DNA of 64,000 bases from a bacterium (lineage in GTDB: Bacteria > RBG-13-61-14 > DATKZS01). Numbering within the stretch: position 1 is the first letter of the stretch; every line of letters begins with the position of its first letter. The translations under genes and the position numbers were made by a program. Location: contig CAXXFL010000006.1 in assembly GCA_963674965.2 (NCBI GenBank), positions 64,001 to 128,000 of the forward strand. The letters are read 5' to 3'. This document shows, in pieces, positions 5,049-14,168 of this stretch. The notes beneath the pieces were generated by a model. The model had not been told where the DNA came from. It saw only the letters and a list, made by a program, of their open reading frames with translations, and did not search any database.

Positions 5049-7286
5049 TTATATTGTCTCGACCCTGCACGGCACGAACCTGTGGAGGGGCGTGCCGGCC
5101 AGCTTGTCCCGATGCGTGTTCTTGGTCAGCCGGTTCACGTTGGCTCCGTAAACCGATCCCTCGTAAACCAGCCCGAAGCCGTGGGGCATGATTACCATGC
5201 CGGGCCTCGCGTCCCCGGTGACCTCCAGCTCGATCTCGACGGAGCCGGCCGAGGTCGATACCCGGACGGTCTGGCCGTCCTCCATCCCAAGGGCCTCAGC
5301 GTCCGCCGGGCTCATGGCCAGGGTGCAGGCCCGGCGTCCCTCATTCCAGGCCGGGTCCCGCATTAAGGTGTTGGCGTTCATGTTCATGTGCCGCCCGGCC
5401 ATTAAAAGAAGAGGCATGTCCATCTCGTCGGCCAGGGCCTTTTGCTCGGAGACCGCGTCGATTCCGCCGATCCAGTCGGCCACCTCGCCGAACTCGATAT
5501 TGATCTTCCCGTCCGCCGTCCTCACCAACTCGAGGTTCTCGGAAGGATCGCATTTGCCTACCCATATGCCCTCGGGATGATCGAGCAGGGCCTGGAATAT
5601 CCGCTCGCCCATGAGCGGACCCGGCTCGAATCCGGCCCTCTCGGCGTTGGCTCGAAAAGCCGCCGGCGCGGTCTGAAGGAGTCCCCACAAAGCCGCCAGG
5701 TTGCCCGAGCACAGGGCCTGGCCAAGGGTCATGGACACGACGAAGGGCATAGCCCCGAGGGCCTTGGGATTTTCCTTCACGAACTTCAAAAGGGCCATGC
5801 CGAACTGGGGCCTGCCCTCCCCGGCCGCCTTGTATAGCTCGTCCGGAAGCTCCGGAACAAGCCCCGCCTTTTTGGCGATCATGGTAATGATCTCGCCCGT
5901 CTCGAGCCTTTCTCCCATTGGCTCGAGCACGGGACGTCTCAGTTGGAAGAAAACCTCGGGAAAGTTCCAGGGAAAGAACGTGCCGTCCCACGACTCGTAA
6001 CCCGAGCGGGCGGGCAAAACGTAATCAGACATGGCCGCGGTCTCGGTCATGGCCAACTCGATGGTCACTAAAAGATCGAGCTTATCGAATGCCTCCTCAT
6101 AAGCCGCGGTGTCGGCGTAGGACCGAAGCGGGTTCGAGCCGCTGCAAAGCACAGCTCGAAGGCGCTCGGGCTTGTCGCTCATTATTTCCTCCGGCATCAC
6201 GTTGGGCGGATAATATCCCATGATGGGGCGAAAGCCCGTCTCGACCGTCCGCCAAAGCTTCGGATCGGAGGCGTCCGAATGCGACCCCAGCGGCATTACC
6301 GTGCCGGGAATTACCTGTCCTCCCGGAACGCCGATCCGGCCGCAGACGGCCAGAAGGATTATCTCGAGGGCGGTCACGGCCGTCGAGTGCCGGTTCATGA
6401 AAACGCCTAGGTCCGGGTGCATGCAGGATTTTTTCGTGGCCACCAGCCGGCAGACATTCTTTACCTCCTCGAAGTCCAGCTCGCAAACCTCGATCGCGGC
6501 CCGGGCGTCGAAGCCTTCGAAAAGCGGCCTTATCTTGTCGAAGCCGGTGACGTGTTTTTCGATGTACTCCTTGTCGTGCCATCCCTCGGCCAGGATGATG
6601 GATATCATGGCCCGGGTCAGGAGGGCGTCGGTCCCCGGCCGGATGGCCAAGTGGATATCCGCGATACTGGCGGTCTCTGATTTCCGAGGGTCGATCACGA
6701 CAAGGGTCTTCTCCGGGTCCGCGGCGAACTCCTTTAGGAACCTCGGGGCCTGGGGCATCTGGTGGCTCATCATACCGTTCCAGCCGATGGCGAGAAACAC
6801 GTCGCATCGGTGGTGGTCCGCGAAACCGGCCATGTACTGCCTGCCCAGGGCCTGGCCCCAGGACCAGAAGAACCCCGTAAGCTCCTGGGCCATGGCGTTG
6901 TAATGGTATTGCGAGCCCAGCCCCGCCATGAGGGACCGGCCAAAGGCCGCCTCGAAGTGACACCCCTGGCCGCCTCCGCCCATGTAGGCGAAAGAGCGAG
7001 GACCATGCTCGTCAACGATGGCTCTCAGCTTCGCTCCAATCTCGGTCGCCGCCGTCTCCCAACTCACGCGCTCGAACTTATCCCCCACCCTTTTCAGCGG
7101 ATAATCAAGGCGCTGGGCGTGATGCTCATGAAAGGCAAGGTTCCGGCCCTTGCGGCAGAAATAGCCCTCGCTCCGAAGGTTCGACTTGTCCGGCCGCACC
7201 TTGACGATCCGGTTGTTCTCGATCAGGGTCTCGAGACCGCAGTTTTGCGCGCAAAGCACGCAGGAGGTTTTTTTCCATTTTTCCAT
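5049..7286 (-). CDS. Molybdopterin-dependent oxidoreductase (DMSO reductase superfamily), cytoplasmic
   Basis: N-terminal CVLCAQNC...C 4Fe-4S motif, VIDPR.SETA..AD.HL.IRPGTD, TAAMSDYVLPA, C-terminal molybdopterin dinucleotide-binding domain; no Tat signal. Confidence 0.9.
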   Translation of the reverse strand: MEKWKKTSCVLCAQNCGLETLIENNRIVKVRPDKSNLRSEGYFCRKGRNLAFHEHHAQRLDYPLKRVGDKFERVSWETAATEIGAKLRAIVDEHGPRSFAYMGGGGQGCHFEAAFGRSLMAGLGSQYHYNAMAQELTGFFWSWGQALGRQYMAGFADHHRCDVFLAIGWNGMMSHQMPQAPRFLKEFAADPEKTLVVIDPRKSETASIADIHLAIRPGTDALLTRAMISIILAEGWHDKEYIEKHVTGFDKIRPLFEGFDARAAIEVCELDFEEVKNVCRLVATKKSCMHPDLGVFMNRHSTAVTALEIILLAVCGRIGVPGGQVIPGTVMPLGSHSDASDPKLWRTVETGFRPIMGYYPPNVMPEEIMSDKPERLRAVLCSGSNPLRSYADTAAYEEAFDKLDLLVTIELAMTETAAMSDYVLPARSGYESWDGTFFPWNFPEVFFQLRRPVLEPMGERLETGEIITMIAKKAGLVPELPDELYKAAGEGRPQFGMALLKFVKENPKALGAMPFVVSMTLGQALCSGNLAALWGLLQTAPAAFRANAERAGFEPGPLMGERIFQALLDHPEGIWVGKCDPSENLELVRTADGKINIEFGEVADWIGGIDAVSEQKALADEMDMPLLLMAGRHMNMNANTLMRDPAWNEGRRACTLAMSPADAEALGMEDGQTVRVSTSAGSVEIELEVTGDARPGMVIMPHGFGLVYEGSVYGANVNRLTKNTHRDKLAGTPLHRFVPCRVETI

Positions 7287-7343
7287 TTCTCACCTCGCCT
7301 TCATCATCGAGCCGATTCCTTGTCATTACCGTCCAGCATTTTC

Positions 7344-7357
7344 GTTAGCATACTAAC
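7344..7357. promoter_or_regulatory. Putative MarR operator
   Basis: Palindrome GTTAG-CATA-CTAAC upstream of the oxidoreductase; a near copy (GTTAGCATACGAA, minus strand) lies at 7807-7819 just upstream of marR. Confidence 0.6.
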
Positions 7358-7374
7358 TTGACCTCGAAAAAAAA

Positions 7375-7797
7375 TTACATAATGTCCCGAAGCAGGCGCT
7401 TTAAAAGCACCCTCTCCTCGAGACTGAAGGGGGCAAGGATTTCGTCGTTGGCCTTTTTCCTCTCCCCGATGAGTTCGTCCTTTATCTCCTCGGCCTTTTT
7501 CGAGGTGTAAATCCTCTGCACCCTGCCGTCGTCGGGGTCGGGCATCTTCTCGATCCAGCCCCCATCCACCATCCTGTCAAGCACGCCGGACAAGGTCGCC
7601 TTGTCGAGCACCAGTATCTTACCCAGCTCCGTGGCCGTGAAACCCTGCTTAACCCACAGGGCCTCCAGCACCAGATGCTGGATGTTGGTAAGCCCGTAAG
7701 GATCGAGCCTTCCCTTGAAAATCCCATGAGCGCGCTGGTAAGCCTTGGCCAGCAAAAAGATGACGCACTCGGGCGCATGTGACGTTTGTTCGGTCAT
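7375..7797 (-). CDS. MarR family transcriptional regulator
   Basis: GLT..Q..VL..L...G.TATELG...LDKATLSGVLDRM..GWI.K.PDPDDGR winged-helix pattern. Confidence 0.93.
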   Translation of the reverse strand: MTEQTSHAPECVIFLLAKAYQRAHGIFKGRLDPYGLTNIQHLVLEALWVKQGFTATELGKILVLDKATLSGVLDRMVDGGWIEKMPDPDDGRVQRIYTSKKAEEIKDELIGERKKANDEILAPFSLEERVLLKRLLRDIM

Positions 7798-7806
7798 GCA
7801 ATATCC

Positions 7807-7846
7807 TTCGTATGCTAACCATATCCCTAAAGAACGGCCTTGTCAA
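7807..7846 (-). promoter_or_regulatory. marR sigma-70 promoter with overlapping operator
   Basis: TTGACA (7846-7841), 17 bp spacer, TATGGT (7823-7818), followed by the second operator copy. Confidence 0.55.
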
Positions 7847-7849
7847 GAA

Positions 7850-8204
7850 TAATTATTGACATACATCTTCCTCTGGGGCAAATTTTTGCCATGGTCAGGA
7901 TGGAAGAACCGTTGTTCCTCACGCGCCCCACCCGTTGCCCAGCGGGGCAACGGGAGACAGCAAACGTTATCGGTTAGACAAGGTACCCTATAAATGGGAG
8001 GACTTTTTGATTCTGCCCGTAACTGGCTCCGAGGTATCGCGAATAAAAACGCGCGAGCGCGCCGGGCGGCCCCTCGGCGAAAAGGACTTCGTCGCGGGAC
8101 TCGAGACCGCCCTCAGCCGCCGCCTCGCCCCCCAAAAGCCGGGCTCAAAGCCTGAAAAGAAGTGAGTTCAGTATGCTGTCCCCAGATTTTTGTCCCCAGA
8201 TTTT
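7850..8204 (+). mobile_element. Internally deleted RAYT/TnpA-REP (HUH Y1) element, copy 1 (left end truncated)
   Basis: Frameshifted N-terminus M.RM.RTVVPHAPH.VAQRGNGRQQT fused to a RAYT-like tail ERAGRPLGEKDFVAGLETALSRRLAPQKPG.KP; ends in AGTATGCTGTCCCCAGATTTT plus a duplicated TGTCCCCAGATTTT. Confidence 0.8.
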
Positions 8205-8659
8205 CACATTCTTGATACAAATCCTGAACAGTCAATGCCAGTTGACCACCAAACCGCTCCTCCTGGGCAAAACCTTCCACCAACTGATGCCAGCCAATCA
8301 TGAACGCAGTATGACCCCGCGCCACGTCCATTTGCTAAGTCATTAGTAACGGTTTGTGGTTCATCAAAACCGCCCCATTTATAAGGTACTCCCCTATATG
8401 TCCAAGAAGGGATAAAGTCACATCTTCTTCCAGTATTTCGTAAAGCAGGGTTCGTGTATGCGAAATGACCTAAAGGATTATTTGGCATATTTGGACCATT
8501 TACATCTATATAAGAGCCTTGGTCTGAGTTAGCTTGCCCGCATGTGAATCGATAATCAGAATATGTCAATGCGTCTGCAACGGTTTGCCCGTAAACATAT
8601 CGTGAAATTATTAGAAGTGAAATAATGAATGCCAAAGTTATAATTCTGTTCTTGGTTAT
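8204..8659 (-). pseudogene. Secreted NlpC/P60-like protein, 3'-truncated at the element end
   Basis: Signal peptide, YRGVPYKWGG and GIDCSGFVSR motifs; the stop arises at the junction with the repeat. An in-frame ATA at 8659 sits behind a GGAGGA RBS (ORF track starts at TTG 8635). Confidence 0.65.
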
Positions 8660-8663
8660 CTCT

Positions 8664-9800
8664 CTAGTCCTCCTTTTTTCTCTTCCATTCGATTAATTGG
8701 GCTTTCTTGGCATCGCCTGTTATTTCATATACATTTCCAGTGTCTTGCACAATATATAGATATTTATCAATGCCATTAGGAAATTCAATAAGCGACGCAA
8801 GATTGATGCTATGTGGTATTTTTGAGATCATTTTATTATCCGCGTTAAAAATACCAATGTAATAGTAGTTGAATCTCCATCTTCCAGGCAGCGAATTATA
8901 ATTAGAATAGGGGTTATAAAGCCAGTAGCTGTCCCCTCTTTCGTCAACAGAAAGAAAAGATAAATCAGGATAATGATTACAACTTTCCTGATTGACTATC
9001 GACTCCCCGATAAGCGCATTTATTGAATGGGTTTTATCGGAAGATCGTTTTTTATACAGTATTTCCAGTGGTGCATTATTATCGCCAATAATATTACATT
9101 GAATTGTTTTCCAAAGTTCAGCTAGCTTGGGGTCACTTTTAAGTAATTTAGTATCCTTAACCAAATTTGGGCTGTATGGGTCACATTCATAGATGCTACT
9201 ACCAGAAACGAATATTAACATTCCTTTGTCGGTTACATTACCTTTTATGGCGGTTTCGAGATTTTGTGGCAACATATAAGTCTTGATTAAATTTAATTGT
9301 CCATCATAAACTCTATCAAATAAATATACGTTACCTTCTGCATCAAATCCTATTGGACGACCTCCAGGGGCATATTTTAATAATTTCCCGTATGGGTCAT
9401 ACAGTTTAGCGCCCCAACCTTCTCCCGCCTGGTCTAAATCAAATATATAAATATCCCCGGATGAGTTCACCATCAGTCCATCTGGTCCCATAGGTGGAGG
9501 ACATTCTCCCTCAAACGTCGCTGAGTCTATAAGATCAGCATCAAAATCATCGTAGCAGCCGGAAATATGAAGGGAGTCAATTCCATTATTCCAATTAAAT
9601 TCTCTAATTAGCTTAAACTCATAATGAACTTTTTCGACGGTATCACGATTCGATTCAACCAGCACTGGTGCGGGTGGTTCAACCACGGTTGGTTTTAAGC
9701 TATTGTCCCCCGCCTTTTTTGTAAAGGCTACGGATATAATCACGGCGCTAAAAAGTACACACAAAAGAACCAATAGCGATATGTAATGCCCCTTTTTCAT
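8664..9800 (-). CDS. Hypothetical secreted/membrane-anchored protein (possible beta-propeller), AT-rich cargo
   Basis: Start MKKGHYISLLVLL.. with GGAGG RBS; repeated D..G..Y.. blade-like motifs. Confidence 0.75.
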   Translation of the reverse strand: MKKGHYISLLVLLCVLFSAVIISVAFTKKAGDNSLKPTVVEPPAPVLVESNRDTVEKVHYEFKLIREFNWNNGIDSLHISGCYDDFDADLIDSATFEGECPPPMGPDGLMVNSSGDIYIFDLDQAGEGWGAKLYDPYGKLLKYAPGGRPIGFDAEGNVYLFDRVYDGQLNLIKTYMLPQNLETAIKGNVTDKGMLIFVSGSSIYECDPYSPNLVKDTKLLKSDPKLAELWKTIQCNIIGDNNAPLEILYKKRSSDKTHSINALIGESIVNQESCNHYPDLSFLSVDERGDSYWLYNPYSNYNSLPGRWRFNYYYIGIFNADNKMISKIPHSINLASLIEFPNGIDKYLYIVQDTGNVYEITGDAKKAQLIEWKRKKED

Positions 9801-9909
9801 AGCCAAAACCTCCATATGAAAATTTTGTCAGTATAAACCATGCAAAAAGGCGCTCCCATATTAATTTCATCATCCATGTCGATAAGCGCCAAATATTTTG
9901 TAATGTGGG

Positions 9910-10268
9910 AGATCTAGGGACAGCATACTTAATTGTAGACATACATCTCCTCTGTGGCAAATTTTTGCCATGGTCAGGATGGAAGAACCGTTGTTCCTCA
10001 CGCGCCCCACCCGTTGCCCAGCGGGGCAACAGGAGACAGCAAACGTTATCGGTTAGACAAGGTACCCTATAAATTGGAGGACTTCTTGATTCTGCCCGTA
10101 ACTGGCTCCGAGGTATCGCGAATAAAAACGCGCGAGCGCGCCGAACGCCCCCTCGGGGAAAAAAACTTCGTCGCGGGACTCGAGACCGCCCTCGGCCGCC
10201 GCCTCGCCCCCCAAAAGCCGGGCCCAAAGCCTGAAAAGAAGTGAGTTCAGTATGCTGTCCCCATATCT
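9910..10268 (+). mobile_element. Internally deleted RAYT element, copy 2, with both terminal inverted repeats
   Basis: Near-identical to 7850-8190; left end AGATCTAGGGACAGCATACTTAATT and right end AGTTCAGTATGCTGTCCCCATATCT are inverted; retains QRGNRRQQT. Confidence 0.82.
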
Positions 10269-10458
10269 TACAAAATGTATGATGCCCTTCCACATGCTCG
10301 AACAATCGAGGTTGTAAAGAGCCAAAAGTCAATGATCCGAACTAACCGTAATTTCGATGAACCATCAAAGGTTAAGCGGAGACGTTGCGTTTGCCAAACC
10401 AACTATAAATAGAGGCATGCTTCCGGGAAGCAGACCCGACTAGAATCATGGGCTTGGA

Positions 10459-11712
10459 TCAGTCTCCCGCGACTTCAGTTGATGATCGATTCATCGTGAA
10501 GATCATTGCCGACAGCAGGCAGAACACTGGATATGCCGGTGCCAGGTAACGCGGCAGCCCCAGGAACAAGAGGAAATGGAACAGGCTAAGCCAGACCGGT
10601 AAGGCGAACAGCGGCAAGAGGTCCCGTGCTCTCCGTCGATGAATCATCATGGCCACCAAGGCCAGGTAAGATACTGTCCGCGACGCAAGGTAGGCCAGGA
10701 AACCAGCCCCGACCACCACCATAGACAGCCCAGCCCCGTCTTTCAATAGTGGATTGAAGAAATACTTCTTTTCGTCTCCCCCCTCCATGAAGGGAGTCCA
10801 CAAAGTAACCAGTCGTTTAAACATTGCCTTGCCCTGGTGCATTGGGTGTTCCATGAGGTAATCGATAGTGACCCTGTAAAGTAAATGGTCAGCTGAGACC
10901 TCATCCATCCCTCGTCGGCGAGCCGCAAGATAAATGTCATGACCATCGATAGGAATATAACTGCCTTGGTGGAAGGTACGCCCTCCAATGGTCGCAAGGA
11001 ACACAAACCTGTTGTGTACCATGAAGTCTCTCACGATCCAGGGACCGATAAGAACAGTTGTTGCCGCTCCGAAAAAGACAAGTGTCTTTAAAGCTTTCCC
11101 GCGCCCGAGTTTCTTTAGGTACCAGAGCGCGATAAGAGGCGCCAGGATGATGAATAGGGGACGCGTAAGAACCAGCCCACCAAAGACCAGGCCACCAATC
11201 AATGCCCGGCGCTTATTGCCCAAGTCTATGCCGCATAAAATTAACAGCAGCCAGGCAAGGAACGCGGCGGAGAGTACTTCGCTCATCACCATTCCCACCC
11301 GGTAGGCAATCAGACCATAGAGTCCAGCGGCCACTAGCGAAGGACCGTCCCTACTGAAAAGCCGCATCCCTAAAAGGTAGACCATAAAAACAGTGATGGT
11401 GTCGAGAAGGGCCTGGACCACCAGCACGGCCCTGGGAACTGGTCCAGTAACAACATATATGGCTGCGATGAAGAACGGGTATCCCGGAGAACGGCTGGAG
11501 CGGAAGCGAAGCCCCTTCCAGGCGGCCATGGGGCCTTTGTAATCGAAGTAATAGGCATGGTCGCGCACCAGTCCGGCCGCATACTGGTGGTACTCGTCCG
11601 AGTCTGCATACAGCACCGGCTCGGCTCCCAAGGCTATTAACAGCCTCAGTGCAAAGGAGAATGCGAGGATCCCTGCAAGAAAAAGGCGACTATGTTCAGT
11701 TTTGGTAGGCAT
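10459..11712 (-). CDS. ArnT/PMT-like (GT-C fold) membrane glycosyltransferase
   Basis: Start MPTKTEH; ADSDEY after TM1, R.PGYP.F, SE.L, L.LTRP, PW.VR, PRYLAP and many TM helices. The ORF-track extension to 11904 is translated repeat DNA. Confidence 0.82.
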   Translation of the reverse strand: MPTKTEHSRLFLAGILAFSFALRLLIALGAEPVLYADSDEYHQYAAGLVRDHAYYFDYKGPMAAWKGLRFRSSRSPGYPFFIAAIYVVTGPVPRAVLVVQALLDTITVFMVYLLGMRLFSRDGPSLVAAGLYGLIAYRVGMVMSEVLSAAFLAWLLLILCGIDLGNKRRALIGGLVFGGLVLTRPLFIILAPLIALWYLKKLGRGKALKTLVFFGAATTVLIGPWIVRDFMVHNRFVFLATIGGRTFHQGSYIPIDGHDIYLAARRRGMDEVSADHLLYRVTIDYLMEHPMHQGKAMFKRLVTLWTPFMEGGDEKKYFFNPLLKDGAGLSMVVVGAGFLAYLASRTVSYLALVAMMIHRRRARDLLPLFALPVWLSLFHFLLFLGLPRYLAPAYPVFCLLSAMIFTMNRSSTEVAGD

Positions 11713-11777
11713 CTGGATATATTTTAGAGCAATAGCCAGCCGATAGAAAGTACCCCGCCTTCGCTTATATCCTCGTT

Positions 11778-11912
11778 GGAAATCTGGGGACAACGGAAAT
11801 CTGGGGAAAATCTGGGGACAGCAGAAAATCTGGGGAAAATCTGAAATCTGGGGAAATCTGGGGAAATCTGGGGACAGCATACTTGGGAAATCTGGGGACA
11901 GCATACTTAATT
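11778..11912 (+). repeat. Staggered tandem array of nine 5'-coterminal copies of the element end AAATCTGGGGACAGCATACTTAATT
   Basis: Nine AAATCTG starts ending at variable 3' positions; only the last is complete. Confidence 0.9.
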
Positions 11913-11946
11913 GTTGACATACATCTTCCTCTGTGGCAAAATTTTT
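11885..11946 (+). mobile_element. Left end only of a third RAYT-derived element
   Basis: GGGGACAGCATACTTAATTGTTGACATACATCTTCCTCTGTGGCAAAATTTT matches the starts of copies 1 and 2. Confidence 0.8.
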
Positions 11947-11951
11947 CTGGT

Positions 11952-12126
11952 TCTGGGGTCATCATACTTAATTCGTTGTTTTCCCAATTATCTCCTCCGA
12001 GTGCCCGAGAAAACATTTCGTTTCCCGCTTGTATAAAGCTATTTAAAATCCGGCCTTTAAAACTATCACTGCCGATATTGACATGAGATATGGGAAACGT
12101 CAATAATTTAGTATGATGTCCTCATA
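11952..12126. mobile_element. Degenerate MITE/REPIN-like pair of the same inverted repeats
   Basis: TCTGGGGTCATCATACTTAATT (11952-11973) and AATTTAGTATGATGTCCTCATA (12105-12126) are diverged inverted copies around ~130 bp. Confidence 0.6.
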
Positions 12127-12290
12127 TCCACAGATCCGAAATTTTACTTACAAGCTTCTTGCAGGAAGAGAAGACAAACAATATTATCAGCTTAAGATAA
12201 TGGGAGCACATTTTAGGGACACGCGCGCGCCACTCATGAATTTTTTCGACTTGAGATTGTCCACCTGGCGACGCCTCCTGGAGAATTTTC

Positions 12291-12319
12291 TTGACATGTC
12301 TCCTGGAATCGGCTATAAT
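12291..12319 (+). promoter_or_regulatory. Consensus sigma-70 promoter for the RRM gene
   Basis: TTGACA-17 bp-TATAAT, a perfect match. Confidence 0.85.
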
Positions 12320-12495
12320 GTAGATATAGCACAAAGGGTTTAAGTACCTAACTTTTTCGACAAACTCGCCTATTGATCGAACTGTCTGACCAACCGGTCT
12401 CAAACCTCTCGAACATTACACGGAAACGGAATCCTTGGCGAAATTCACGAACATGTTTTTCCGCTAAGAGTGTTCGCAAATATTAGGAGAACTAA

Positions 12496-12807
12496 ATGAA
12501 TATCTATGTTGGAAACCTGTCTTATGACGTGGACGAAAATCAGTTGCGCAAATCTTTCGAGCAATACGGAGACGTCGCGTCGGTCAACATCATCAAGGAC
12601 AAGTACAGCGGACAGTCCAAGGGCTTCGGCTTCGTCGAGATCAACGACGACGACAAGGCCCTCCAGGCCATCGAGGGCCTTAACGAGAAGGAACTCGGGG
12701 GCCGCAAGATGAACGTCAACCAGGCCAAGCCCCGCACGGACAACCGCGGCGGCGGCGGCGGCGGTCGCGGCGGATTTGGCGGCGGCGGCGGCGGCCGTCG
12801 CTACTAA
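12496..12807 (+). CDS. RRM (RNP-1) RNA-binding protein with Gly/Arg-rich tail
   Basis: MNIYVGNL (RNP2) and KGFGFVE (RNP1); AGGAG RBS. Confidence 0.95.
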   Translation: MNIYVGNLSYDVDENQLRKSFEQYGDVASVNIIKDKYSGQSKGFGFVEINDDDKALQAIEGLNEKELGGRKMNVNQAKPRTDNRGGGGGGRGGFGGGGGGRRY

Positions 12808-12827
12808 AACCAAATCAGATCGGGACT

Positions 12828-12868
12828 GGCCCCGCCTGGACGCGAAGTCTCGGGCGGGGCCTTTTTTG
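12828..12868 (+). terminator. Intrinsic terminator
   Basis: GGCCCCGCCTG...CGGGCGGGGCC stem followed by TTTTTT. Confidence 0.85.
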
Positions 12869-13052
12869 CGGTTGAAGATTGGTATAAGACGTAGTGGCTG
12901 GATGGCGCAAGGTTTTTACACAAACCTTTTAAGCCGGCCAATAGTAAAACTTTCATCAACCATCGGGCGGACATACCAAAGCCCGGAGTCAGGACCGCCA
13001 AGCGGGACGCCCGCGGTTTTTACAAAACATCGCGCCGCCCAGGCGGGCACGT

Positions 13053-14168
13053 TCAGGTCGCTTCCCGGCGGGGCGTCAGCTCGGGCATGTATCTTTCGAT
13101 GATGGCCAACAGCTCGCGTCCTTTGGTCAGGTTTCCGAGGTATTCGGATATGACCGGGTGCATGAACTGGTTGAAGCGCAGATACTCGGGCCGTTTCTTG
13201 ACCTGGTCGATGAAGTGGAATCGTCCCACCACCTTGAGCATTCGGTGGATCACGCAAAGGTCGAAGGACCGCTTGAAGTCGTCGCGGTCGAGCCTCGCGC
13301 CCGCTCTTCGTTCATAGGCGTCGGCGTAGAACCATATCAGGCCCTCGATGGTCTCCTTGCCCAGCACGTACGAGGTGTCGCGGTCGTAGAGGAGACAGGC
13401 CAGGTCGTAGGGAAGCGGCCCGAGCAAGGCGTCCTGGAAGTCGATGACCCTTATTTTTCCGTCCTTGATGAGGAGGTTGTCCATGTGGTAGTCGCGATGC
13501 TGGAGCGCGTACTGTCCGGATATCATCTCCTCGATAAAGCCGTCGAAAATCTCGCCGATCCGTTTTCTTTCGACCTCGGCAAGAGCGCCCGGGGACCTTC
13601 CGTCCAGGGCGAACTCGACGAAATGATCCAGCTCCCACCTTAGAAGCTCCCTGTCGAAACTGGCCATGAACCCGATGAAGTCGTCCGATTGCCTGTCGGT
13701 GCAGTCGATCTGAATTTTGACCAGCTCCGAAATGGCCATCTCGAACCCCTCGCGTGGGGATCCGCCCTTGGCCACGAAGTCTCGAAGATGCTCGTCGCCC
13801 AGGTCCTCGAGGTAGACAAGCCCCATCCTCTCGTTCACGCCCAGGACGCGGGGAACGGCCAGGCCGCATTCATGGAAATGCCGGTGAGCGTTAATAAACG
13901 GCAGTTCCTGGACAAGGCCGCCGGCCATGACTTCCTCGATGCCCTTGGCCGGGTCGGGATCGGAAAGGACCATGACCACCATGGTCTCGGGGCCATCTCC
14001 AGCCGTCCTTACCCTGGCGTACCCTCTAACCGAGGCCCCGCCGGCAAGGGCCTCTATCTCGAGGTCTTCCAAATCCGAAAAGCCCATGTCCGCCAGGTCT
14101 TCCCTGATCGAGGCCGTGAGGACGGCCTCATCCAGTTTCATTTTTCCGCATAGTTCCGTAATGCTCAT
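13053..14168 (-). CDS. APH-family phosphotransferase, AmgK-like (MurNAc/GlcNAc 1-kinase)
   Basis: L.GGAS.R.Y.R, LEDLGD, HRDYH..NL, VIDFQDA..GP..YDL..LL.D, R.LKV.GRF motifs. Confidence 0.8.
   Translation of the reverse strand: MSITELCGKMKLDEAVLTASIREDLADMGFSDLEDLEIEALAGGASVRGYARVRTAGDGPETMVVMVLSDPDPAKGIEEVMAGGLVQELPFINAHRHFHECGLAVPRVLGVNERMGLVYLEDLGDEHLRDFVAKGGSPREGFEMAISELVKIQIDCTDRQSDDFIGFMASFDRELLRWELDHFVEFALDGRSPGALAEVERKRIGEIFDGFIEEMISGQYALQHRDYHMDNLLIKDGKIRVIDFQDALLGPLPYDLACLLYDRDTSYVLGKETIEGLIWFYADAYERRAGARLDRDDFKRSFDLCVIHRMLKVVGRFHFIDQVKKRPEYLRFNQFMHPVISEYLGNLTKGRELLAIIERYMPELTPRREAT

Follow-up and report, generated by a model that had tools for sequence, protein, structure and literature searches.

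A cluster of internally deleted TIRtron derivatives among foreign envelope genes in a bacterial genome of the RBG-13-61-14 lineage

The locus and its elements

The window considered here is a stretch of 64,000 nucleotides of bacterial DNA (GTDB lineage RBG-13-61-14, DATKZS01; assembly GCA_963674965.2, contig CAXXFL010000006.1, positions 64,001 to 128,000), and coordinates given below without a label refer to it. Within the window, at 71.8-76.1 kb of its contig, short transposon-like elements alternate with genes for envelope-related proteins in an array that lies between a marR gene and a gene for an RRM protein. The original prediction, made from the sequence of the window, described this array as an integron-like platform that captures or shuffles cargo genes and is driven in trans by a REP-associated tyrosine transposase (RAYT) encoded elsewhere. 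The evidence set out here points to deleted copies of a transposon of the TIRtron type, a RAYT-like gene framed by terminal inverted repeats (TIRs), which lie clustered among acquired genes. The genome is the sole member of its genus and is assembled in 7 contigs. Labels C2, C4, C6 and C7 denote contigs of this genome, whose coordinates are not those of the window; G007 is a genome of the same order, and L-numbered loci are homologous or related loci used for comparison.

The leftmost copy, element 1 (7850-8190, plus strand), is an internally deleted mini-TIRtron from which the left 25 nt or so are gone, the left inverted repeat included. Its first bases, TAATTATTGACA, lie about 25 nt inside the full element, and its right inverted repeat is intact at about 8164-8189. 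Directly after it the repeat listing and the sequence reveal an extra tandem copy of the right tip, TGTCCCCAGATTTT (8191-8204, plus strand), of a kind referred to below as tip 'stutter'. Element 2 (9910-10268, plus strand) is a complete mini-TIRtron of 359 bp with both inverted repeats, 9910-9932 matching 10246-10268 over 23 nt with 87% complementarity, and its left tip reads AGGG, not GGGG. Elements 1 and 2 are direct repeats, as had been proposed, with 96% identity across 300 nt (7869-8168 against 9948-10247). The TIRs that were ascribed to both are present as a pair in element 2, whereas element 1 is without its left one.

The right-hand part of the array differs from its first description. 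What had been taken for stacked ends (11780-11887, plus strand) does not consist of whole ends. It is a stutter in which a script found seven partial copies of the left tip in tandem and a shorter AAATCTG piece was recognized by eye; all of them begin AAATCT, and the seven stop 5, 7, 10 or 15 nt beyond the first G of GGGG. Element 3 (11888-11946, plus strand) follows, and comprises just the first 59 nt or so of a TIRtron, that is, the left inverted repeat and a promoter-like TTGACA region. It stops exactly where the tip of the next element starts. This neighbour, S170 (11947-12130, plus strand), had been described as a degenerate pair of inverted repeats and is in fact a member of a separate, gene-less second family of about 180 bp, with related inverted ends GGTTCTGGGGTCATCATACTTAATT ... 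AATTTAGTATGATGTCCTCATATCC; a BLAST search of the genome turned up 8 more copies of it, full or partial.

When the flanks of all copies were compared, the element tip was found to extend six bases, A[G/A][A/T]TCT, outside GGGG, and the inverted repeats of the elements open with A(G/A)(A/T)TCT-GGGGACAG-CATACTTAATT. No target duplication was seen at the element copies compared in the genome, in keeping with the earlier observation that none is evident at the array.

An array of near-identical repeats could also arise as an artefact, if repeats were collapsed or misjoined during assembly; the elements are repetitive and the genome is in just 7 contigs, and the original prediction had itself named chimeric junctions as a way in which it might fail. 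Contigs assembled from short reads of two runs on one sample, probably the assembly's own source, span 7700-7882, 8155-9985, 10234-11916 and 11916-12300, and their depth is even across cargo and flanks, at 12-21x. The array is therefore no assembly chimera, because these contigs bridge every repeat-to-unique junction, and we regard an artefact of this kind as extremely improbable. What the contigs test is the assembly, not the biology; they contain neither alternative joints nor circles, and rare rearrangements or variants would be lost from contigs.

An intact parent element and its deleted copies

A search of the genome with the Pfam Y1_Tnp profile found five places, one of which (C7:626102-626419) falls within a 749-bp element at C7:625,995-626,743 that has the same two ends as the elements of the array and is the one intact copy in the genome. 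Its transposase gene (C7:626054-626719) encodes a protein of 221 amino acids that scores 45.7 bits against Pfam Y1_Tnp (cut-off 23), and HVH and ARY motifs are readable in the translation. Elements 1, 2 and 3 derive from this element. When aligned with it by BLAST, element 1 covers positions 25-145 and 539-753, element 2 covers positions 4-145 and 539-755, and element 3 is 98% identical to positions 4-62. About 390 bp, with the HUH and Tyr motifs included, are deleted from the mini forms. Two parts of the original prediction are borne out here: the mini elements are remnants of a RAYT gene without its core, and they are non-autonomous relatives of a Y1/HUH transposase of which an intact gene with the same ends is present, on C7.

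The deletion joins position 145/147 to position 539/544 of the intact copy in element 1, in element 2 and in two copies elsewhere (C4:240321-240673 and C6:486560-486921), and alignment shows an identical junction sequence in all four. Because the same junction recurs at four loci, the mini form has been copied as a unit, and a form lacking the catalytic core has in this way spread to at least three separate places. It was presumably mobilised in trans by the single intact gene. With regard to the proposed driving by a RAYT elsewhere, the gene has thus been found, and the mobilisation in trans is presumed from the shared junction. The mini copies are 351-359 bp long and 90-93% identical to the intact copy. 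Elements 1 and 2 resemble one another most closely, at 96% as against 87-91% to the other mini copies. A second deletion form, in which 314 is joined to 491, is represented by two copies, on C7. Two further families, M115 (129 bp) and S170, have only their ends in common with the TIRtron.

The mini copies resemble miniature inverted-repeat transposable elements (MITEs) in that they are short, have terminal inverted repeats, lack a transposase and share their ends with an autonomous element. Classical MITEs usually have target duplications, which the mini copies are without.

Relation to described mobile systems

RAYT-like genes between GGGGWSAS terminal inverted repeats are known as TIRtrons or TIRYTs, and such repeats occur singly, as dimers and in clusters, according to the portions of Di Nocera 2013 (PMC3733652) used here; the corresponding portions of Quentin 2018 (PMC6006769) place most TIRYTs in TnpA-Y1 subclass 2.1. 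Several features of the present elements match this type. The C7 copy carries a RAYT-like Y1 gene with HUH and Tyr motifs, of which the copies in the window lack the core, and the intact copy, like element 2, is framed on either side by GGGGACAG, which is of GGGGWSAS type. The ends also form a dispersed family. A genome-wide search for the end word GGGGACAGCATACT, which had been suggested as a check, gave 34 matches (21 + 13) with at most one mismatch, against 1 match for a reversed control (14-mer). Among 39 elements, counted as hits of the TIRtron, M115 and S170 families in the genome, 26 have another element within 5 kb, whereas random placement gave 2.3 on average and never more than 11 (2000 trials).

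Relatives of the transposase are widespread. A word-based search found at least 8000 TIRYT relatives (8000 of 8000 scored candidates), and 489 related loci were collected from species genomes across many phyla. The flanks of the best 80 of these 489 loci were surveyed for inverted repeats, and 77 had enough flank. For 56 of the 77, as read from the list, the strongest inverted repeat shared by the flanks corresponded wholly or in part to the GGGGACA..ATAC..TTAATT type; in 2 it was a different repeat, and in 19 the script, a crude exact-seed one, gave none.

On the basis of these features the window elements are core-less TIRtron derivatives that do not count as autonomous members. Elements of this type have been described before; what the array adds is deletion derivatives clustered in a foreign envelope-gene island. 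The likeness to published TIRtrons (PMC3733652, PMC6006769, in the portions used) consists of a gene at a conserved distance from GGGGWSAS-type repeats and of dispersed ends, whereas the spreading of deleted copies, tip stutter and deletions flush with a tip go unmentioned in those portions, and no test of the TIRYT mechanism was found in them.

Other systems share some of these properties. REPIN-RAYT systems, as portrayed in parts of two accounts (Bertels and Rainey 2011, PMC3116915; Bertels 2017, PMC5581495), are alike in belonging to the Y1 superfamily, in having gene-less repeats that are presumably moved in trans and in lacking target duplications. The 20-25-nt ends of the present elements (AGATCTGGGGACAGCATACTTAATT) differ in that they are without a GTAG tag and are not self-complementary, as judged by eye, and the transposase element itself looks mobile, since it has decayed copies in this genome. 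The 221-residue protein, moreover, scores 74 bits against the NCBIfam model for REP-associated tyrosine transposases (NF047646), below its cut-off of 80. With no GTAG hairpin ends by eye and a score below this cut-off, the elements were not assigned to the REPIN-RAYT group.

Elements of the IS200/IS605 group use an HUH Y1 enzyme, make no target duplication and have short non-autonomous derivatives, and in these respects the present elements are similar to them. They end in asymmetric subterminal hairpins, lack terminal inverted repeats and insert 3' of a fixed 4-5-nt target. The elements described here have terminal inverted repeats of 20-25 nt, and there is no fixed flanking word among the copies compared; membership of this group was also rejected.

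In arrays of IS26 or ISCR (IS91-like) elements, direct copies alternate with cargo, adjacent deletions truncate neighbours, and the units lack target duplications. The present array has the same outward features, namely direct copies alternating with cargo, truncated neighbours and no target duplication. The IS26 transposase is of the DDE class, so that the enzyme differs; further differences are that no element-cargo unit occurs twice and that element 2 is a simple insertion into contiguous DNA. Direct copies do flank cargo A, but a composite unit of the IS26 kind is not supported, as element 1 has no outer end and the unit is unique in the genome.

An integron consists of an intI tyrosine recombinase gene and an attI site, with independently mobile cassettes bounded by attC. 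The likeness to the array is outward only, and lies in short repeats between single genes that share one orientation. The repeats here are 350-bp transposon remnants and not attC sites, and the cargo genes have their own upstream regions, one of the genes being truncated. In a genome search with PF00589, the nearest tyrosine-recombinase gene on the contig was at 247 kb, about 171 kb from the array.

Tip copies and deletions at element ends

Partial copies of tips are common in this genome: 45 of them adjoin element ends, and each starts at the outer hexamer of its neighbour. Most are very short: beyond the first G of GGGG, 33 of the 45 continue for 2-8 nt, four for 10 nt, three for 15 nt (...TACTT) and one for 25 nt. 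Element 1 starts just after the TACTT point where three of these copies end. In other genomes, 57 of 204 ends were accompanied by at least one extra tip copy at a distance of no more than 70 nt (best 80 loci). Stutter may reflect repeated action of the transposase at an end, through re-cutting, abortive copying or joining.

A different type of change can be seen between two loci from near-identical strains. L136 and L138 represent the same locus with 96-99.5% identity, apart from a stretch of 405 nt (L138 5029-5433) by which they differ and whose end coincides exactly with a TIR-dimer tip. The deletion removes most of a homologue of the 143-amino-acid protein encoded beside element 1, and is a tip-flush deletion caught as a polymorphism. 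In this genome, a partial TIRtron copy on C7 abuts an S170-like tip with the same geometry as element 3, and both truncations would be explained by deletions flush with a tip.

The L138 locus, which corresponds to that on contig C46 of G007, has a further property. Its TIR ends abut the stop codons of both convergent, housekeeping-like flanking genes (L138:2540-2560 and 5485-5500), a radical SAM gene, whose TAA lies inside GGAATTAA-AGGGACACC, and a Gfo/Idh/MocA-like gene. Tip-flush deletions trimmed by selection would explain this placement.

The cargo genes and their relatives

The cargo genes lie on the minus strand. Between elements 1 and 2, cargo A contains two open reading frames, of which the one adjoining element 1 (8204-8635, minus strand) encodes a 143-amino-acid secreted protein. 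The sequence GVPYKWGG ... GIDCSGFVSRM corresponds to the start of an NlpC/P60-like domain, and the frame stops 3 codons past the Cys motif, where the tip copies of element 1 directly adjoin it. In G007 a paralogue continues for about 75 more codons. The truncated NlpC/P60 protein originally proposed can be recognized to this extent, the start of the domain being readable, but the Pfam match is weak and below cut-off, with E 1.1 over positions 1-21 of a 105-position profile. For the L131 homologue, a search of PDB sequences gave nothing meaningful (E 0.41).

The second frame of cargo A (8664-9815, minus strand) is low in GC and encodes a 383-amino-acid protein, predicted to be an anchored beta-propeller with an N-terminal helix or anchor and an NHL-like body. 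Its structural model has a pLDDT of 75.7, and the best PDB matches are NHL propellers with TM scores of just 0.27-0.35. The protein belongs to no Pfam family, and of 1.84 billion representatives searched just 18 are related to it at E <= 0.001; a word-based homologue search matched only the protein itself. The family is present in 2 of the 13 species genomes that the collection holds for the phylum.

Cargo B, between elements 2 and 3, encodes a GT-C membrane glycosyltransferase (10459-11712, minus strand; 417 amino acids from an ATG at 11712), and this assignment agrees with the original prediction, with a Pfam PMT_2 score of 31.2 bits against a cut-off of 26.1. The open frame continues through the tip copies to 11904. 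Its best relatives, in two genomes of the same order, are 36-38% identical over their full length. Cargo A is AT-rich, as had been noted, with a GC content of 33-42%; that of cargo B is 50-57%, and that of the flanks about 60%. Neither blastn nor tblastn found a second copy of cargo A or B in the genome that could have served as donor, and there was no Rfam match at E <= 0.1 across 7000-13200.

These base compositions are relevant to the possibility that the whole 4.3-kb mosaic, elements included, arrived ready-made as one island. Low GC in cargo A and an intermediate value in cargo B would fit such an arrival, as would the presence of the 383-residue family in just two genomes of the phylum, and a donor could have carried TIRtrons of this family, which are found in many phyla. 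The elements themselves look resident: element 3 is 98% and the mini copies 90-93% identical to the intact copy of this genome, the same deletion variant lies at two further loci, so that the genome's own population can account for the copies, and the 96% identity of elements 1 and 2 fits a recent local copy. We consider a ready-made island quite improbable.

Cargo A is a conserved two-gene module, because a homologue of the 143-residue protein follows the gene for the 383-residue protein in 6 of 9 metagenome loci. In these loci the module has a GC fraction of 0.31-0.45 within flanks of 0.65-0.7. TIR ends are present at three of them, and in two the module is preceded by a full TIRtron and followed by a TIR dimer. 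These loci are not independent, because L130, L132 and L136 each match one of the four paralogous loci of G007 with 100% identity; L138 comes from a close strain.

Two observations concern the cargo A genes themselves. In G007 there are four paralogues of the 383-residue protein (L139, L141, L143 and L144, on contigs C53, C110, C46 and C7 of that genome), in which the GC-rich 5' part is 80-88% identical at the DNA level, whereas the sequence for the propeller has diverged and has a low GC content. Such an arrangement of constant head and variable body recalls polymorphic surface or toxin genes. The NlpC/P60-like gene, for its part, ends within about 13 codons of one point, after DCSGFVS(R/K)M, in three lineages (window 8204-8215 on the minus strand, L138:5380-5490 and L131:5520-5560), two of the end points lying against a TIR tip. 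The native continuation, ATG-TGGGG..., resembles the tip ..CTGGGG, which may be target mimicry or coincidence.

How the array may have formed

The DNA on the two sides of element 2 provides an indication of the order of events. An imperfect palindrome is split by the element, with its left arm at 9875-9903, followed by a loop TGTGGG at 9904-9909, and its right arm at 10268-10296, where the DNA to the right of the element reads TTACAAAAT. Of the 29 positions in each arm, 21 can pair with the other arm, and the inner 8-9 do so perfectly; among random adjacent 29-mers of the genome, a fraction of 1.5e-5 match this well. The palindrome was picked from listed inverted repeats, and is still unlikely by chance after about a hundred choices of offset. 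No other copy with up to 6 mismatches is present in the genome, which rules out that the arms are the ends of another repeat family. Because a single palindrome is split, element 2 entered pre-existing DNA in which the edges of cargo A and cargo B were already contiguous. A continuous island into which elements inserted later is the outcome that had been named as speaking against capture, and at element 2 the sequence itself points to it.

We therefore claim contiguity and not the targeting of hairpins, because the palindrome is a symmetry of sequence and not a strong fold. For 15 other insertions, the joined flanks, folded as DNA, did not stand out from random 60-mers. Insertion at hairpin apices as a general rule was rejected, since the flanks of 16 insertions, with element 2 included, are no more stable than random 60-mers.

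In our judgement the array is probably the product of ordinary clustering and erosion of non-autonomous TIRtron derivatives within foreign envelope genes, and no capture device. The interval from marR to the RRM gene would have contained acquired genes of low GC content, each on the minus strand, in the order glycosyltransferase, beta-propeller protein and NlpC/P60-like protein. The mini elements and S170, moved in trans by the single intact transposase, would have inserted among them without target duplication, as in single-strand HUH transposition. Continued action of the transposase on the ends would have left tandem partial tip copies and tip-flush deletions, one of which would have taken the body of element 3. 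A separate deletion, not flush with a tip, would have run from inside the left repeat of element 1 toward marR, with loss of that repeat and of the 3' part of the NlpC/P60-like gene. The alternation of elements and cargo would then be a by-product of repeated local insertion and erosion. Insertion into a gene array that was already there is also in keeping with a second cluster, at C7:509.5-520.5 kb, in which the two small genes that flank an S170-like element are paralogues (36% identity, E 2e-18).

The integron-like platform is not supported in the light of several of these results, including the split palindrome, the single-copy cargo, the absence of an outer end from element 1, the distance of about 171 kb to the nearest tyrosine-recombinase gene and the paralogues that flank an element on C7. 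A different form of capture has to be weighed separately. The transposase might act on non-adjacent ends, or read through from one end, and so move an element together with its cargo; such composite or translocatable units would insert beside a resident element and build an array of direct repeats, by analogy with what is known of IS26 and ISCR. The directly repeated copies, the sister relationship of elements 1 and 2 and the lack of target duplications would all be expected from this mechanism, but neither a cargo nor an element-cargo unit was found twice, element 1 is without an outer end, and the split palindrome indicates that element 2 entered contiguous DNA. A second pair of deleted copies, on C7, is 99% identical, 4.2 kb apart and brackets low-GC genes; however, both copies are without the left inverted repeat, and the second also has a cut right tip. 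At the C46 locus of G007 and at L138, the homologous module has a full TIRtron on one side and a TIR dimer on the other, with their outer ends inverted, three of five module loci adjoin TIR ends, and paralogy between the C46 and C7 loci of G007 starts within about 14 nt of the TIRtron tip. A homology boundary at the tip is equally expected here, because insertion followed by a tip-flush deletion also gives it, and the sequences of L130, L132 and L136 are G007 DNA and do not add independent cases. On this evidence we think that capture by composite units is unlikely.

Several observations weigh against clustering and erosion as the full explanation. All three TIRtron copies and S170 have the same orientation, and elements 1 and 2 are mutual closest relatives, both of which the insertion of composite units would predict likewise. 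The left junction of element 1 is flush with no tip, and a separate deletion is needed to explain it. The joined flanks of element 2 fold at -5.4 kcal/mol, which 71% of random genome 60-mers match or better. No closely related genome shows empty sites, and family-level relatives are without synteny at this locus. At 3 of the 5 loci of the cargo A module (the one in this genome and 2 of 4 in G007), TIR ends are no more than about 0.7 kb away, for which a rough hand estimate gives a chance of about 1% per locus (G007 has 40 exact cores in 4.7 Mb). Coincidence of module and ends looks unlikely, and some link through targeting or co-transfer is suggested. Several segments between elements of other clusters are low in GC too, and the elements are linked to variable low-GC DNA, whether through insertion preference, tolerance of insertions there or co-transfer.

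The comparison with relatives can be given more exactly. When 41 genomes were searched at the DNA level, matches were confined to the RRM gene and the next gene, and the oxidoreductase gene to the left of the array has just paralogues of at most 30% identity in four family members. The neighbours of the RRM gene differ in the genomes G004 and G001. The 140 nt or so before the RRM gene (12353-12495, with the ATG at 12496) are conserved as DNA, with 82% identity to G004, a family-level relative, from 12353, and may be a leader or regulatory RNA; they have no Rfam match.

A bolder proposal combines the traces at the ends with the position of the modules: TIRtron ends would be re-cut by the HUH transposase, and one-ended or outer-end events would move or duplicate neighbouring low-GC modules. 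We hold this to be doubtful. If true, it would provide a single-strand-transposase counterpart of the gene-mobilising arrays of IS26 and ISCR, and would explain both the occurrence of the beta-propeller and NlpC/P60-like module beside ends in two genera and the recurrence of arrays of elements and cargo.

Other repeats in the genome

Elements of the smaller families are found in further gene arrays. At C4:373500-383500 (L129), M115 and S170 elements lie among C-terminal fragments of RHS type with ..DKWRGE.. cores, each followed by small genes (ankyrin-repeat, possibly immunity-like), in the manner of RHS-type orphan cassettes; the open frame of one such fragment reads through an S170 copy. The inverted ends of M115 (for example C4:379353-379481, 129 bp) differ consistently, with ..ACAGCATACTT at one and ..ACAGTGTACTT at the other, such that a hairpin would contain G-T pairs on one strand and C-A mismatches on the other, which hints that one strand folds. 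Two M115-like copies at C2:268302-270406 (L128), 1986 nt apart, lie in a tandem duplication of secreted FGE-sulfatase-like genes, where three related N-termini occur in a row; as part of the gene duplication, the pair does not represent two insertions.

A two-ORF insertion sequence is also present, in near-identical copies at about 30 places in the genome, examples being C7:515400-517000 (L026) and C4:375000-376700 (L129). It has frames of 179 and 338 amino acids, the longer of which contains MIARRESAELARRLIGDSIRKQ, and it looks IS3-like. Two of its copies lie inside M115 elements.

Implications

For a widespread family of transposases, the elements of this genome provide mechanistic clues in the form of a deletion derivative that was presumably mobilised in trans, partial tip copies with a fixed start and a small number of preferred inner end points, and a tip-flush deletion found as a polymorphism between strains. 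There is also a lesson for annotation: arrays of remnants around foreign genes are to be read as transposon clustering and erosion, unless a unit of element and cargo is seen moving.

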